Source: a virus. Taken from it: a DNA stretch of 64,000 nucleotides. The translations under genes were made by a program, and so were the position numbers. Position 1 is the first letter of the stretch. Each line of letters opens with the position of its first letter. The notes beneath the pieces are model-generated. The model did not search any database and was not told the DNA's origin. It saw only the letters and a program-made list of their open reading frames with translations. Below are positions 8,193-63,988 of the stretch, piece after piece. The DNA is taken from IMG/VR virus record IMGVR_UViG_3300020027_000004, positions 17,986 to 81,985 of that record. One strand, written 5' to 3'.

Positions 8193-8432
8193 TCACGACT
8201 CGTCCGCCTTCTTTGCGCCGGCCTGCAACCGAGCGCGCCTCGCAAGTAGCGCCTTGTCGGGTGTCGGCGGCAGCCGCTCTCCACGAAGCGTGGCGTCGCG
8301 AATATCCTCAAGCGTCCTCGCGATACGACCCAGGCGAGACACCGTCATGGCCGACCAGATGATCCAGAGGATCCAGCTGGTGAACATGAGGGCGCCAATC
8401 ACGAGGCCGACGCCGAAACCGATTGTCATCAC
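8193..8432 (-). CDS. Small single-pass membrane protein
   Basis: Hydrophobic N-terminal 30 aa; start overlaps the resolvase stop. Confidence 0.6.
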   Translation of the reverse strand: MMTIGFGVGLVIGALMFTSWILWIIWSAMTVSRLGRIARTLEDIRDATLRGERLPPTPDKALLARRARLQAGAKKADES

Positions 8433-9085
8433 GACCGCACCGCCCGTTGAGTGCTTCGTCGCTTGGTGCTGGTGGGTCCCATGGCTTGCTTCACTCCACC
8501 CTCCGGGTTGTTCGCGTCAGCCGCGCGCAGCCGCGCGACGCCGACGGTACAGCGCAGTTCCTTTGCGATCGTTGACCACGACTTGCCTTGACGCCGCAAC
8601 TCGATGACAGCCGCCGATGAGGGACCGTTCACCGGAGGCCGGCCGAGCCGTTTCCCCGACCGACGAGCGCGATCAAGTCCGAGCATGGTGCGCTCCCGAA
8701 TCAGCGTGCGCTCGAACGTTGCAACACCCGCGAGCACGGTGAGGATCAGGCCGCTGATTGCATCGCCGCCAGGCTTCACGTCGATTCCCTGCGAGGTCGC
8801 GACGAAGCGCACGCCAGCGTCCTTGAGCGCCTCGATGTTCGCGAGCACATCGAGAGTTGAGCGTCCCCAGCGATCCATCTTCCACACCGCGACCGCATCA
8901 ATCTCTCCCTTGCGGGCAGCTTCGAGCACGCGCTGGAGACCTGGGCGACCGTTCCACGCACCGCTCGCCGACTCCTCGATACACAGCGCCACGACTCCAC
9001 CGTGACGGTCGACCCACGATTCAAGTTCTGCCCGAGCGAGACCCTGATCTTGGTCGAGCGTGGATACGCGGTGGTAGATCGCCAC
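8429..9085 (-). CDS. Small serine recombinase (resolvase/invertase family) with C-terminal HTH
   Basis: AIYHRVST catalytic Ser motif, ESASG...RPGLQR, VWKMDRWGRS, FERTLIRERT..GL..AR..GKRLGRP; GTG start at 9085 chosen from the upstream AGGGGG. Confidence 0.92.
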   Translation of the reverse strand: MAIYHRVSTLDQDQGLARAELESWVDRHGGVVALCIEESASGAWNGRPGLQRVLEAARKGEIDAVAVWKMDRWGRSTLDVLANIEALKDAGVRFVATSQGIDVKPGGDAISGLILTVLAGVATFERTLIRERTMLGLDRARRSGKRLGRPPVNGPSSAAVIELRRQGKSWSTIAKELRCTVGVARLRAADANNPEGGVKQAMGPTSTKRRSTQRAVRS

Positions 9086-9278
9086 ACGTATCGCCCCCCT
9101 TGTAGAAAACGGGGGGTCAATGCGGGTGCCCTGTACTGCCCGCTTCCGGCGATTTGCGGCCATGGGCATAGCTTGTCAAATACGGTCGGTTATTACAAGA
9201 CCGCCCGAGCGGGCGGGATCAGACCGGCAGCGGGGTGGGAGTTGCAATCCGGATTGGAATATGGGCATATGCCCACGC

Positions 9279-9899: not shown

Positions 9900-10007
9900 G
9901 CGGCGAGTCGTCGTCCGCGCTGGTATCCGAATGCTCGCGACCATCGACGCGATCAACTCGCCGCGATGCGCGAGTACGTAGCAGCCGAGCGCAACAATCA
10001 TCGCCGG

Positions 10008-38360: not shown

Positions 38361-38654
38361 TCAGCCGCGCTTCCAAACATCGAGCGCAGCGGTGAAGGCT
38401 GCCAGCGCGAGCTCGCCGCGAGGAGCGATACGATACGGACGCCGCGGCGGACCGCTCTCGCCTGCGGGCGTCGGGGCGTTGCGGACCACCACCAACCCCT
38501 TCTCCTCCATGCGCCCGAGAAGCACATAGATTGCGTTCTTTGAGAGAACGCCGCGCGACCGCTTCACGAGCTCGAGCCCGTAGAGATCTCCGGTCGTCAA
38601 CTGCGTTAGAACGATCCGCTCCGATGTGCTCAAGCTAGGTGGAATGCCGCGCAT
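38361..38654 (-). CDS. PadR-family winged-helix transcriptional regulator
   Basis: L..L......YGLEL.......L....IY.LL.RME.KGLV...GPPRR.Y.I...G..AL. Confidence 0.88.
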   Translation of the reverse strand: MRGIPPSLSTSERIVLTQLTTGDLYGLELVKRSRGVLSKNAIYVLLGRMEEKGLVVVRNAPTPAGESGPPRRPYRIAPRGELALAAFTAALDVWKRG

Positions 38655-56129: not shown

Positions 56130-57624
56130 GGTTCGCGGTCCTGGATCTGGTAGCGCTTGCCGATGTCGCGCAGACGTTGCCATGCTGGACCGTCGGTTTT
56201 TGGATCAGGGATGGTAGCGAGCGCGCACGCTTCCCACAGGTCAGAACGGAGGAACTGGATCTCTTGCGCGAGGCCGAAGATGATGAGGTGGAGATCGCGG
56301 TAGGAGTCGATTCGGTCCACGCGATCGAGCGGCACCATCAACCGGCGGAGGAACGGGTCCAGTGGGAACTCCTCATCGTTGCGCACGGCCTCGATGATCT
56401 GCTCTGCGAGCTCGCGGCGGGTGCGACGGTCCGCATCGTTCGGCAGCGTCTCGCTACCCATGGCGGAGCCTCGGAGGAACCTTGGATCGGTTGTAGACCT
56501 CGCGTGCGATCACGAACGAGTGAAAGTGCTTTCCGCGCAGCCACTCGACGATCGCGCGATACCCCGGGTTCCCGTTCGCCTCGAACGCGTCGATCGCGGT
56601 CCACCACGCCTCGAGTGACTCGGTTTCGAGGAGCACTCCCTTGCAGTGCGGGCAGCACGGAATTCCGTTCGGGAACGCAGCGGCCTCGGAGATCGAGCCC
56701 CACCAGGCGCACGAGAAGCCGGAGACAATTCGGGTGTCAGCCATGCGTAATCTCCGCGGTTGCGTCCGCTAGCTGATCGAGGAGGTGACCGTTGATGCCG
56801 TCTTGCTCGCGCCACTCGTGGCCGATCTGGTAGGCAACCACGATGATGCGAGTGATGCGGTTGAGCGCATCGTCGTCGCCCATACGGACCTTGACCATGA
56901 GGTCTAGCATCGCTGCGGATCGCTGTTCTGGTGTCGTCGGCATCAAATCTCCTCGGGGTCGAACTTGAACTGCAGCGGCGCTAGCGCTTGTGGCTTGAAG
57001 AGCGATGAGCATCCGCGTGCTCCAGGAATGCATCGGCATCCCGGTATGCGGTAGAGCTTCGCGCCTCCAGCCTCCGCGGCCTTCATCCGCACGAACGCTT
57101 GCACGGCGTTGAGATTGAAGCCTCGCAATCCTTCATCGGTGGTGGCATCGAGCTCGACGGTCCACAGCACCTCGGTTTTGCCATCATGCTCCACCGCGAT
57201 GATTCGATCTCCGAGTCGGAGATCCTTCGCTTCGCACGGCATCTCGCTACTCCTCGATCAAGCGATACGCGGTCGCACGTGCAACGCCGCTGAGGCATCG
57301 TGCATCCCTCGCGAAGTAGCACGCATCGGCGCGCTCGTCCCGCCGGCCACCGCCGCACAAGTCGAGATTGCTCTGCTCGAGCTCGGCGAGAACGCGGCTC
57401 GCGATCGCCTCGTTCCAGCCGCGGCGCGCGAGCTCGGTGCTGTAGCTGTTGATGCGCGCTTCGTAGAGCCCGCACCAGGTGCGCCGGCGCTTGTCGAGTT
57501 GGGCCTTGCCGTGCCGCGCATTGCGCTCGTCGTCGCAGTGCTGGAGACCGACGATGATCCCAACGGAGCCAGCGACAACCACCAGCATCACGAGAATGTC
57601 GAGGGGCCAGGGGAGGCGGTTCAT
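56126..57624 (-). other. Five small coupled hypothetical CDS (56126-56461, 56454-56744, 56737-56943, 56943-57242, 57247-57624)
   Basis: Overlapping or abutting starts and stops; 56454-56744 has CCPHC; 57247-57624 has an N-terminal TM. Confidence 0.6.
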
Positions 57625-58757
57625 CGGGTTATCTCCAGCTTCTCGGGCGAACCGGGGTTCGGCAACACCGAACCGTCCGGATGGAAATACTTGTTCACGA
57701 ACATCGGCTTCATCGGAGGACCGTTGCGCTCCTTGTGGTAGGCGATCGCGACGTCGCGGAACTCGTCGGAGATCCACGTCACGTGTAGAAGTTCGGGGGC
57801 CGCACCGCGATCGCTCATCCGATACTCGAACATCCCGTGTCGGCGGAGACCGTTGAGGCCGATGCATTCCTGGAGCACGCGGATGCTCTTACCGGGGAGA
57901 ACACCGCGGGGCGCGTCGCGGCCGTTTCCGCTCGCGCGCGGCGACACTGGAATGCGCTCGTCGATGCTCTTGCGACCATCGAGATCGCCGTGACCCATGT
58001 GGTGGAGCCGCGTGGCCTTCAGTCGCTTGAGCTTGTCGGCCATCACGGCTTTGTAGTCGTCAACGTGATGGCCCTTGTTCACATCGTAGCCGCGCCACAT
58101 CTGGAGCATCTGTGCGTCGGTCGTGGTGACGTTGGGGAGGTTCTCGCGGATGTCCTGGAAGCTCGATTCAACCTGGCGACGCAACACGGAGATGATGTCG
58201 ATCTTCTGCGCCTTGTCGCTCTTCACATCGGCGTTCGCCTCACCCTTGACCGTGGCGCTCGTGCGTTGCTTGCCGAAGCTGAGGATCTGCTTCTGCGCCT
58301 CTGCGAGAGCGGCATCGGGCGTGGAACGCACCACCTGGAGGATCGAAGGCGTGGCGCGGATCCCAGCATCGAGAAGCGCGTTCTCGTCCACGGCCTTCAT
58401 CCATGCCACTGCGGCCTTGAGTGCGTTCCCTCCGACGAACGCGATGACGTCGATCACCACCACCGCCATCACCGAGAGGTCTTGCTCCTTGCGGAGCAAC
58501 TCGTCGGTTCGCAGCTCCGACAGCGCCGCAGTGCAGTTCTTCGAGGCTTCCGCGAGGCGGCCGATCCACAGCGCGAATAGGTTGGAGCGTTGCTGTGGCG
58601 AGAGAAAGAACCCGGGGCCGGTGGGGTTGGTGCCGTAGTCGATCGCGCCGGCGCCATGCGACGCTTGCGGTTGTGTCGCCTTGCCTGGTGCCGGCGCGGC
58701 CGGAGCTGGCGCTGGCGCCGGGCCTTTGCCGGGCGCTTGCTTCGCGCTGGCGGGCAT
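57621..58757 (-). CDS. Hypothetical protein with Pro/Ala-rich N-terminus and central hydrophobic helix
   Basis: Long open frame with strong coding composition. Confidence 0.7.
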   Translation of the reverse strand: MPASAKQAPGKGPAPAPAPAAPAPGKATQPQASHGAGAIDYGTNPTGPGFFLSPQQRSNLFALWIGRLAEASKNCTAALSELRTDELLRKEQDLSVMAVVVIDVIAFVGGNALKAAVAWMKAVDENALLDAGIRATPSILQVVRSTPDAALAEAQKQILSFGKQRTSATVKGEANADVKSDKAQKIDIISVLRRQVESSFQDIRENLPNVTTTDAQMLQMWRGYDVNKGHHVDDYKAVMADKLKRLKATRLHHMGHGDLDGRKSIDERIPVSPRASGNGRDAPRGVLPGKSIRVLQECIGLNGLRRHGMFEYRMSDRGAAPELLHVTWISDEFRDVAIAYHKERNGPPMKPMFVNKYFHPDGSVLPNPGSPEKLEITR

Positions 58758-58777
58758 GAACGGCCACCCCGGCACGG

Positions 58778-59173
58778 CTAGATCCTCTCCCCGACGCCGA
58801 GCCACTTCTCACCGCAGCGGTGCGGCTTGTCCTCGATGATGCCGAAGTAGACCACCGGCTCAGGCTTGGAAGGATCCACCGAGACAACGACGCGATACGC
58901 GTCACCGAGGCCACGCCAGAACCCGATCCACCGCTTGCCATCGCGAACCACCTCTCGAGCGTCGTACGTCTCGCCATCGAACAGCATCCACATCCGGCCA
59001 CCGCGGAGCGTGATCTCGGGATGCGTGCCGAGGAACCGCCACACACGCGCACGGAGTGCTTCGTTGCTGCACGCTGGCGATGGAACGAACTCGCCCTTTG
59101 ATGGCAGGAGCCGGATGGTGTCCGCGTGCGCCGATGTCGCAAGCGCGATCAACAAGATGATGGTTGCCTTCAT
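58778..59173 (-). CDS. Secreted hypothetical protein
   Basis: Sec signal MKATIILLIALATSAHA-D; two Cys. Confidence 0.7.
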   Translation of the reverse strand: MKATIILLIALATSAHADTIRLLPSKGEFVPSPACSNEALRARVWRFLGTHPEITLRGGRMWMLFDGETYDAREVVRDGKRWIGFWRGLGDAYRVVVSVDPSKPEPVVYFGIIEDKPHRCGEKWLGVGERI

Positions 59174-60228: not shown

Positions 60229-61146
60229 TTACGAGTCGAATCCGAAGACGATGCGTGTGAGCGCGGCGGCATCCAGTGCCTCGCTTCTGAGCCGCGCGAC
60301 ATCAGGACGCGTGGTCGGTTTCGCGATCCAGCCAAGGCCATCCGGGCGAGCTCCGTGCTCCGCCTCAAGCGCGTCAAGCGCTACGGTCTTCGCGGTGGCG
60401 TAGTCGTGGCCGAGGATCGGCTCGACGAACTCGTGGAGCCAGCCAAGGAAATCCGGACAAGCATCAGCGGCCGACTCGAACCACTCGACTCGAACGATCG
60501 GTGTCTCGGTCATCGCGTAGCCGTTGGATGGCTTGCCTCGACGGACGAGTTCGTGTGCTTGCTCGATGGTGAGCATCGTACCGTTCCGTCCCTGGCAGTA
60601 TGCGTTGGGCGGTTTCTTGCCGCCGCATCGCTCCATCCACTCGACATACGAATCGTTCAGATAGGTGTCCCCGTCGGGGAACACCGGGATGATGCCGGTG
60701 AGTCGGCCGCCTTGTGTCCAATCGAACGTGAGGATCTCAGCGATGGTGAACCACGATTCCGAGTGGTCCCAGCTCGCGCACTTCTGAACCGTCGGCGAGA
60801 GATCCGGTGGCTCGCCTCGGGGCTCGGCGATGCGCGGCATCGATGACTTCCGCACCGCCAACGCGCGACTACTCGCGCTGGCCGGAGGCCCCGCGGGAAA
60901 GCGATGGCTGGGTTGATCCGTCCTGGGGCCCGGGCCGCTCGATGCGCGGCTACGATGGCGGATTTCAGAAGTGCTACGACTGCGATGGCAAGGGAGAGGG
61001 CTGCGATCAATGCATGGAAACCGGCCGTAACCTTCGCTGGTACGGGAACCGGAACTACGAACTCTTCGGCGTCCTGGCTGGCGTTCGAGGCAATGCCAGG
61101 CGTTGTCGCGCTTCTGCTCGATGTAAAGATGCACATCCGTCCCCAT
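60229..61146 (-). CDS. Conserved phage hypothetical protein carrying an internal inverted segment
   Basis: MGTDVHLYIE start and IAEPRG.P.D.S...HSESW.T..E.L.FDW body; the expected middle (RNYELFGVLAGVR) is on the opposite strand. Confidence 0.7.
   Translation of the reverse strand: MGTDVHLYIEQKRDNAWHCLERQPGRRRVRSSGSRTSEGYGRFPCIDRSPLPCHRSRSTSEIRHRSRASSGPGPRTDQPSHRFPAGPPASASSRALAVRKSSMPRIAEPRGEPPDLSPTVQKCASWDHSESWFTIAEILTFDWTQGGRLTGIIPVFPDGDTYLNDSYVEWMERCGGKKPPNAYCQGRNGTMLTIEQAHELVRRGKPSNGYAMTETPIVRVEWFESAADACPDFLGWLHEFVEPILGHDYATAKTVALDALEAEHGARPDGLGWIAKPTTRPDVARLRSEALDAAALTRIVFGFDS
60863..61111. repeat. Imperfect inverted repeat bounding a 249-bp inverted segment
   Basis: Left GCGCGAC(60863-60869)..CTGGC(60878-60882); right GCCAG(61095-61099)..GTCGCGC(61105-61111). 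Confidence 0.65.
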
Positions 61147-61148
61147 AA

Positions 61149-61418
61149 CTACGCGGTCCGTTTCTGTCGCTGGAGTACTCGCGACGGGTTGATCGTTGCT
61201 GCGAGTTCGCGGATGGCGCGGAGCTTGTGCGCCGCGCGAGCGTCCTCGGTGCGCACCACGATGAGATCGCCGAACGCGATGCGCTCACGCGAGCGGTGAG
61301 GTTCGCGGTGCTGACCCGAGCTCGTGGTGCATGGGGCGCAGAACGCGGCCTCGCATTCTGGGCACTCGGGGAGCTTGCGCACGCGCGCGTTGAGAAGATG
61401 GTTGGGTGTGTGGCTCAT
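61149..61418 (-). CDS. Small zinc-binding protein
   Basis: CPECEA...C...G...H..R. Confidence 0.6.
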   Translation of the reverse strand: MSHTPNHLLNARVRKLPECPECEAAFCAPCTTSSGQHREPHRSRERIAFGDLIVVRTEDARAAHKLRAIRELAATINPSRVLQRQKRTA

Positions 61419-62760: not shown

Positions 62761-63988
62761 CGTTTTGCCTTCGGTGGTTTGAGGTAGTGGTTGATCACGG
62801 TGCGGATGGCGTGGACCGCTTCCGTGCTGGCGGCGGTGAGGTGGCCGAGCTCGTAGGCCGCGGTGCTCTCCGTCTTGCCGGTGGCGATCGCGGCGGCTTG
62901 CCCCTTGTCTGGGGCGGACTCCAGATCGTTCGCGATGCGCTCAAGGAGCACGCGGGCCGATTGGACGTCGCGTGCGTTCATCGGCGCCACCGCATGCGCT
63001 CCAACATGAGCGACTCCAGCGGGGTGAGCCGCTCTTGCTCGGTGCGCGCGTGCGTGTGGCAACGCTCGATGATGACCATCGGCGGTTCGTCGAGCGGAAC
63101 CACATCGCCGTGACGGTCGTGCGTGTAGTGCTGCCGCTTCACTTGACGCCTCGCGCGTTGAGGATCTCGGCGCATTGGGCGCGGGCTACCCATTCGCCGG
63201 CGAATATCAGCGGTGGTCTCGTCTACTCGAAAGGTCAGCGCAACGAGACACGCGTCTAGTAGTTCTCTCGCTTCCTTGCCGAGCGTCCCAATCTGCTCGT
63301 CGGTGATCGTGTCGGCGGTGAGCTTCACGAGTGCACGATCTTGATGCGGATGTTCATGTAAAGAACACCATCCTCAGGGTCGTGGCTCATCTCGCACGTT
63401 GTGAGTGCATCGATGATGTGCGCGCCAACCACTGCGGGCGAACCATTGACCGTGAGAAGTTCGTACACGGCATCGCTCTGTCCAGTGGACATCGCGATCG
63501 ACGCGTCCTCGATGGTGATCCTGCGGCGCGCACCCATTAGCGCACGATCTCCGTGTAGCCGAGTTCTGCGCAGTGCGAGAACGCGCGCGCCTCGGTGCGG
63601 AAGTAGTGCACGAAGCCGGTCCCCACGTTGTTGTGGATCTCGGAAACGGTGAACCGTCCGAACTTGTTGTCGCGGTCGATCACGAGCTTGTAGCGCGATG
63701 GCACGTTGTCCGCATCGTTGGGCTTGTAGGCCACGGCGATCTTGGTGCTGCGCGGCTTGGTGATCACGAGGCCACCGCCGGAACCTGAAGCACTCTGCCG
63801 TGGGGATAGGCGCTCTGGCGAACGTTGTATGCCTGGATCTCGACGATGCCAGCCGTGGTGATGCGGAGAGTCTGGCGGCTGACCACCTCGACGAGCCCGG
63901 CCTTGAGGCAACGGCGCATGTGGGTTGCCGAGGTGGGCTCGATGCGGTTCGGGAACTCCACGCGACCATCCGCCATCCGGGCGAGCAC
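62757..63988 (-). other. Run of small coupled hypothetical CDS (62757-63062, 62978-63328, 63325-63537, 63537-63767, 63764 to beyond 63988)
   Basis: Overlapping start/stop codons on the minus strand; the last probably starts outside the window. Confidence 0.55.

Follow-up and report, generated by a model that had tools for sequence, protein, structure and literature searches.

Does a phage gene whose middle is encoded on the opposite strand represent a reversible switch, or a gene broken by a single event? The question is raised by a minus-strand open reading frame in an uncultured soil phage. The DNA analyzed (the window, 64,000 nt) comprises bases 17986-81985 of a linear 88,002-bp IMG/VR virus record, which has a GC content of 64% and a completeness of 91% (CheckV estimate), and the public runs that contain DNA of this phage are soil metagenomes only. 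The ORF opens with MGTDVHLYIEQKRDNAW, and family sequence returns at PRIAEPRG, reading PRIAEPRGEPPDLS...WDHSESWFTIAEILTFDWTQ...IVFGFDS. Of the family protein, the N-terminus and the C-terminal two thirds are both retained, and the 83 codons between these pieces are rich in Ser, Arg and Pro. A sequence-only reading of this stretch had described these codons as antisense-like and had proposed a switch, reversible and of the ON/OFF or two-isoform kind, possibly operated by the phage's serine invertase, with a one-off template-switch event or an assembly or amplification chimera named as alternatives.

The gene belongs to a widespread phage protein family, PHROG 10141, for which no function is listed in that resource. 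The family comprises 6,176 cluster representatives at E ≤ 0.001 and 1,000 at E ≤ 1e-30, and is found in phages of Paenibacillus, Aeromonas, Caulobacter, Mycobacterium, and others, where the annotation is always hypothetical; no Pfam model matches it. The fold of the family was judged on an AF2 model of one homolog, P0003 (pLDDT 75), which had no match in the PDB by Foldseek, reached a best Z of only 2.2 by VIA-align, and matched uncharacterized AFDB clusters only. The invariant residues D4, H6, E10, R, Y, R, D, H, and D-W hint that the family may be enzymatic. As a comparison set, we used seven homologs of 227-331 aa, ∼31% identical. The motif order in 7/7 of these is MGTDIH - (PFWGP, Cys-rich loop) - RNYxxFAxLAxVRN - IAEPRG - WDHSESW - FDWTQ - VFGFDS, and the alignment bears out the order (MGxDxH, RNYxxFxxLAxVR, IAEPRG) that had been claimed for the family beforehand. 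The Cys-rich insert is absent from many family members, and no recurrent truncation at IAEPRG was seen among the best 150 family representatives.

The part of the family sequence that the minus-strand ORF lacks is found on the other strand of the same DNA. The plus strand at 60861-61112 translates as ...GWVDPSWGP...CYDCDGKGEGCDQC...WYGNRNYELFGVLAGVRGN, and this reading is 48% identical to homolog P0003 over 64 aa (E 1e-13), whereas the minus-strand reading of the same middle bases shows no likeness to this homolog (E 2.2). Against the PHROG 10141 profile, the minus ORF covers positions 59-177 and the plus ORF covers positions 25-66. A six-frame search with a profile of the seven homologs placed hmm 20-96 on the plus strand at 60849-61091, and the two flanking matches, hmm 1-26 and 111-266, on the minus strand (positions in Table 1). 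Plus-strand coding was also flagged by a codon-usage scan, at 60855-61140 within a minus-strand block. The protein-like middle on the plus strand, and the antisense-like character of the minus-strand codons that lie between a family start and its resumption, are thus as the sequence-only reading had described them.

Scored against the seven-homolog profile, the current ORF reached 133.0 bits in two pieces (hmm 1-26 and 111-266), with hmm 27-110 missing, and it fails to give a whole-length collinear match. Re-inversion in silico at the inner repeat (60878-61099) gave 182.0 bits, and at the outer repeat (60863-61111) 179.8 bits, in each case as a single match over hmm 1-266. An open frame of 305 aa, with the motifs in the expected order, is left by re-inversion at either repeat, as had been predicted. 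Because the current ORF matches the profile in two pieces and the restored ORF matches in one, the gene is a disrupted member of the family. The family-invariant residues (G2, D4, H6, E10, W, R-x-Y..F..L..V-R, A..R-G-x-P-x-D, H, D-W, FGFDS) are all but one present across the three pieces, the lone exception being the N of VRN (here VRGN), and the R-x-Y..V-R block is located on the strand opposite to the rest of the gene. The inversion measures 249 bp by the outer repeat edges, 222 bp by the inner-repeat edges, and 212 bp as unique interior. In short, a conserved phage gene has had its middle turned around between short inverted repeats, and the family architecture returns once that piece is turned back. 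The structural side of the sequence-only reading is upheld by profile and restoration alike; the functional switch built on it found no support here, for reasons given below.

Table 1. Positions in the window of the disrupted gene, its pieces, and the repeats at the two breakpoints.
Feature	Position	Strand	Remarks
Disrupted PHROG 10141 gene	60229-61146	-	Single open 305-aa frame; original start codon kept
N-terminal piece, not moved: MGTDVHLYIEQKRDNAW	61096-61146	-	Holds family-invariant G2, D4, H6, E10, W17; hmm 1-26 at 61063-61146
Right breakpoint repeat, GCCAG-N5-GTCGCGC	61095-61111		Reverse complement GCGCGAC-aacgc-CTGGC
Inverted unique segment	60883-61094	+	Encodes family middle: PSWGP, Cys-rich loop, RNYELFGVLAGVRGN helix
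Left breakpoint repeat, GCGCGAC-tactcgcg-CTGGC (GCGCGAC-N8-CTGGC)	60863-60882		Small hairpin GCGCGA-ctac-TCGCGC inside
C-terminal piece, not moved: IAEPRG...WDHSESW...FDWTQ...IVFGFDS	60229-60840	-	hmm 111-266 at 60232-60834

Inverted microhomology of a few bases is present at both breakpoints, with GCGCGAC and CTGGC at each end, exactly where these repeats had first been noticed. The two blocks are 7 bp and 5 bp long, and the spacers between them differ by 3 bp (8 nt in the left arm, 5 nt in the right arm). An equally good inverted match occurs in 0.3% of random 26-nt window pairs at the same spacing, and in 11% when 66-nt windows are used, and the repeats are meaningful only because they coincide exactly with breakpoints that were set independently by protein homology. 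In the 88-kb genome, no further copy of the breakpoint motif was found, the two breakpoint sites being the sole matches. The sum (a+b) is divisible by 3 at both candidate exchange points, and the reading frame is therefore kept. The inner exchange sets the family-invariant Trp at its normal distance from the start and scores slightly above the outer exchange; judged from homologs at ∼31% identity, the exact crossover would fit either repeat. The breakpoint sites contain no repeat of the recombinase type (typically 11 bp or more, with equal geometry in both arms), and no 26-bp dyad of the Hin/Gin/Cin type.

Short repeats and a hairpin at the left site might mark a replication-slippage hotspot, at which the segment would flip back and forth without a dedicated enzyme, leaving both orientations in the population at low frequency. 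Microhomology at both ends and the 6-bp hairpin are what such a hotspot would display, and the repeats are intact after the inversion, so that reversal is possible in principle. However, the hairpin at the left site (z -0.9), like the hairpin or cruciform potential of the breakpoints in general, is no better than in shuffled sequences, spontaneous exchange at 5-7 bp repeats is rare, and the second orientation was not seen in contigs and unitigs at ∼2-10x depth. We regard recurrent, non-programmed flipping as very improbable.

That both orientations are open had been offered as a sign of a switch. The current orientation is indeed stop-free, yet this is a result that chance alone gives about once in six. 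The sense codons TTA, CTA, and TCA, which become in-frame stops when read antisense, make up 0.84% of codons in the well-supported ORFs of the genome, and because they are scarce at 64% GC, from 50% (calculated) to 57% (empirical) of 83-codon stretches are still open after an in-frame flip. A random inversion would thus give a full-length ORF in ∼1 of 6 cases (0.50-0.57 stop-free × 1/3 in frame), and the stop-free current orientation is unremarkable. The start codon of the gene sits 2 nt past the stop of the upstream gene, and flips that keep translational coupling in such a tightly packed operon may survive preferentially.

The consequences for the protein were examined by modeling the current ORF in AF2 with 12 homologs. 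In this model, residues 25-100 have a pLDDT below 50, and the N-terminal strand and C-terminal domain are as in the family model. The inversion removes the helix bearing the invariant R, Y, F, L, V, and R, and because the stretch that takes its place is predicted to be disordered, it offers no plausible second isoform. The model thus points to a present state that is most likely a null rather than an alternative protein.

Since the record is a metagenome assembly, an assembly or amplification artefact was also weighed, in which the true DNA would be collinear and the junctions would be the product of chimeric reads or of an assembly error at the repeats. Foldback chimeras formed at inverted repeats yield junction sequences identical to those seen here. 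Against this, three assemblers returned the same order from the source library (the IMG/VR record, an 88,007-nt ENA MEGAHIT contig, and a 6,455-nt Logan contig), and the Logan contig, at a depth of 9.9, covers the whole region in the inverted state, with no collinear contig beside it. Misassembly at the repeats is also not expected, because 5-7 bp is far below any assembler's k-mer, and too short to confuse a de Bruijn graph. Moreover, two runs from a second sample with a different study code (X2 and X3) contain the same clone at ∼2-3x, and unitigs from this sample match both junctions exactly. Over the junctions, these are 151-nt unitigs from X2: one (61050-61200) spans the right junction, reaching 45 nt into the segment and 89 nt beyond it, and the other (60846-60996) crosses the left junction, extending 32 nt beyond the inner repeat and only 17 nt beyond the outer; an X3 unitig (60708-60870) abuts the left junction. 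Each has 0 differences. Because both junctions are reproduced in a second sample, a single-library artefact is very unlikely, and the chimera that the sequence-only reading had kept as an alternative is largely excluded by the three assemblies and the second-sample unitigs, which leaves an artefact of either kind extremely improbable.

No restored, collinear, or strand-changing joint was found in the contigs and unitigs of three runs from two samples, at ∼2-10x and with contigs dropping minority variants, so that a small share of restored molecules may have escaped notice. In both samples the prevailing orientation is the one lacking the motifs. The inverted orientation is apparently fixed in the two soil samples that contain the phage; since these possibly come from related sites, fixed here means fixed in that clone.

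We looked for the same locus in other phages. No close relatives of the phage were found in GenBank phages (DNA and protein), IMG/VR (protein), or GTDB genomes, and a degenerate pattern for WYGNRNYELFGVLAGVR, searched on either strand, found no near relative in JGI metagenome contigs. Because no close relative was found, the ancestral state is taken from the homologs at ∼31% identity. Family members at 29 IMG/VR loci and one other (L002) are collinear on one strand in 30/30 cases, among relatives no closer than about 35% identity in the collections searched, and strands are mixed only in this window. Comparison with related phage loci, which the sequence-only reading had envisaged, thus gave no second inverted example, and, with one orientation in all assemblies, the inversion has the appearance of a singular event, as a spontaneous origin would have it. 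The codon-usage strand scan, used to look for other intragenic flips in the genome, re-found the target; the other strong short opposite-strand block that was checked, 38361-38654, is not an inversion. That block is a 97-aa minus-strand ORF within a plus-strand structural block, a normal stand-alone reverse gene, whose product looks by sequence alone like a small winged-helix (PadR-like) regulator.

Under a programmed intragenic inverton, the segment would be flipped back and forth between an active and a recoded or inactive state by the phage's own serine recombinase or by an invertase of the host. The phage encodes one enzyme of this kind, a 246-aa small serine recombinase (8429-9169, minus strand), which is the sole site-specific recombinase in the record. 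It matches PF00239 (E 1e-33) and PHROG 125 'DNA invertase' (E 2e-43), reaches no cut-off in NCBIfam, and has Gin as its nearest solved relative; its gene is 52 kb away from the inverted segment. No tyrosine recombinase was found in the record. The serine recombinase gene is antisense to neighboring genes, and a 25-nt inverted repeat (22/25; 8823-8847 and 9932-9956) has one arm within it and the other 763 nt upstream of the gene start, which by rough estimate is borderline above chance.

Among classical invertases, those of the Mu G segment (Gin), the P1 C segment (Cin), and Salmonella (Hin) use 26-bp dyad sites within longer repeats, which measure 34 bp in Mu. In these systems the invertase gene lies beside the segment, inversion needs an enhancer, and the exchange is between alternative tail-fiber C-termini, each of them functional. 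The locus studied here resembles them in that the phage encodes a small serine recombinase related to Gin and in that the crossover lies within coding sequence, but dyad sites of 26 bp, an adjacent invertase, an enhancer, and tail-fiber C-termini are all absent at 60863-61111. Intragenic invertons of the 'recoding' and 'premature stop' types have been described in Bacteroides and other bacteria, where their definition requires that reads from one population show both orientations and that inversion depend on an invertase, and where the thiC repeat is 11 bp (Chanin et al., 10.1101/2023.03.11.532203). As in the 'recoding' type, our segment lies wholly within the coding sequence, is flanked by inverted repeats, and recodes residues without a stop; unlike the Bacteroides examples, it was seen in one orientation, has a 7+5 bp repeat with unequal spacing, and showed nothing to tie it to a recombinase. 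Putative invertons have also been reported on metagenomic viral contigs (TPMM, PMC13501310), the example considered here having 14-bp repeats and reads in support of both orientations. The present case shares with these a candidate inversion in a viral coding sequence from metagenomes, but is without 14-bp repeats and without read support for both orientations.

Given such precedents, with repeats as short as 11 bp in Bacteroides, a programmed inverton would account for inverted repeats placed exactly on the breakpoints, for two open orientations, for three pieces all free of decay, and for the invertase-like recombinase. It fits poorly with the only orientation seen being the motif-less one (in contigs and unitigs at ∼2-10x, with minority variants dropped), and with 7+5 bp repeats whose 8- and 5-nt spacers misfit a fixed-geometry site and whose motif is unique in the genome. 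The breakpoint repeats are also unlike the only strong inverted repeat of the phage, the recombinase gene is 52 kb off when those of Gin, Cin, and Hin lie beside their segments, a tyrosine recombinase is missing from the record, and 0/30 related loci are inverted. As noted above, an open frame is a ∼1-in-6 chance result, and the recoded part is predicted to be disordered. A reversible switch operated by the phage serine invertase, as the sequence-only reading had imagined it, therefore draws no support from the single orientation, the poor sites, the distance, or the disorder, and we consider a programmed inverton unlikely.

A more specific version would have a reversible 'recoding' inverton with unusually short 7+5 bp sites, acted upon by the distant phage serine recombinase or a host enzyme, through which the population hedges between active and inactive or altered forms of a widespread early protein; this we consider quite unlikely. 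A maintained switch would also be consistent with the lack of decay and with a geometry that keeps the frame and adds no stops. Nevertheless, a recent neutral or mildly deleterious mutation accounts equally well for the lack of decay, the frame-keeping geometry, and the presence of an invertase-like gene.

The strongest inverted repeat in the window is found elsewhere, at 57007-57040 and 57855-57888, where arms of 34 nt are complementary at 33/34 positions and are separated by 814 nt. Its 25-nt core occurs in only those two places, with 0 occurrences expected by chance, and a weaker third copy (19/23) is located at 62933-62955. The right arm is in-frame sense in a 394-aa minus-strand ORF (57621-58805), where it codes for SIRVLQECIG with 78 aa left before the stop, and the left arm is an antisense copy close to the 3' end of a 99-aa ORF (56943-57242). 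The segment between the arms (57041-57854) takes in the final 78 codons of the 394-aa gene, a 125-aa gene at 57247-57624, and the first part of the 99-aa gene, and its flip would put a 24-aa junk tail on the 394-aa protein. No PHROG matches and no close relatives were found for this region, and its repeat arms show no likeness to the breakpoint repeats at 60863-61111. The repeat may form a genuine inverton on which the phage serine recombinase acts, or it may have arisen recently as a templated inverted copy. It has the proportions of a classical inverton such as the Mu G segment, with its 34-bp repeats, and it is a better inverton candidate than 60863-61111 and a far better candidate as an invertase substrate.

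Returning to the inverted gene, we favor an inversion that happened once, and recently, at short inverted repeats, whether by illegitimate recombination or by a template switch in replication, and that disabled a dispensable gene; to this explanation we assign a probability of roughly 0.78. The one-off template-switch event, which the sequence-only reading had listed as an alternative, is thus the best reading of the locus. A single spontaneous inversion of ∼220-250 bp would have occurred within a non-essential phage gene, by exchange at pre-existing short inverted repeats, the 7-bp GCGCGAC and/or the 5-bp CTGGC, during illegitimate recombination or by template switching in replication. The core helix (R-N-Y..F..L..V-R-N) and the Cys-rich loop would thereby have been exchanged for ∼76-83 antisense-derived residues, unstructured and rich in Ser, Arg, and Pro. 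Symmetric phase, together with the rarity of stops in the antisense of GC3-rich codons, would have left the frame open, and the open frame would also keep translational coupling with the neighboring genes. Because a conserved helix and the Cys-rich loop are replaced, the gene product is most likely inactive, and because none of the three pieces shows decay, the inversion is probably recent.

Comparable inversions are known: those in the lac region of E. coli occur at 12-23 bp repeats, and quasi-palindrome template switching takes place in bacteria and phages. Template switching in replication has its own literature (e.g., PMC10766183). Our case is like spontaneous short-repeat or template-switch inversions in having two breakpoints, a segment inverted in place, inverted microhomology at each junction, and one orientation, with no dedicated enzyme needed. 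It differs from the classical E. coli inversions in that its repeats are shorter (7 and 5 bp), the phage is an uncultured one from soil, and the frame happens to stay open, and the mechanisms are likened by sequence alone.

As a static mutation, the inversion has mainly practical value. A frame-preserving inversion in GC-rich DNA can produce a full-length-looking ORF, or a truncated gene call, that hides a disrupted member of a family. Here, the public gene call for the C-terminal piece is P0001, a protein of 203 aa that starts at an internal Met, and 308 nt at 60841-61148 are without a called gene in the annotations of the ENA and Logan contigs; the short call and the gene-less stretch show how such inversions slip past annotation. 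The locus also provides a worked negative example for the calling of invertons by sequence alone, in which dual open frames and a distant recombinase are weak evidence. Were it nonetheless a true switch, the range of intragenic invertons would grow to include phage early genes, a modest rather than a categorical advance given the literature of 2023-2026. Read as a static mutation, it indicates that the persistence of this phage in soil does not depend on the conserved PHROG 10141 gene.
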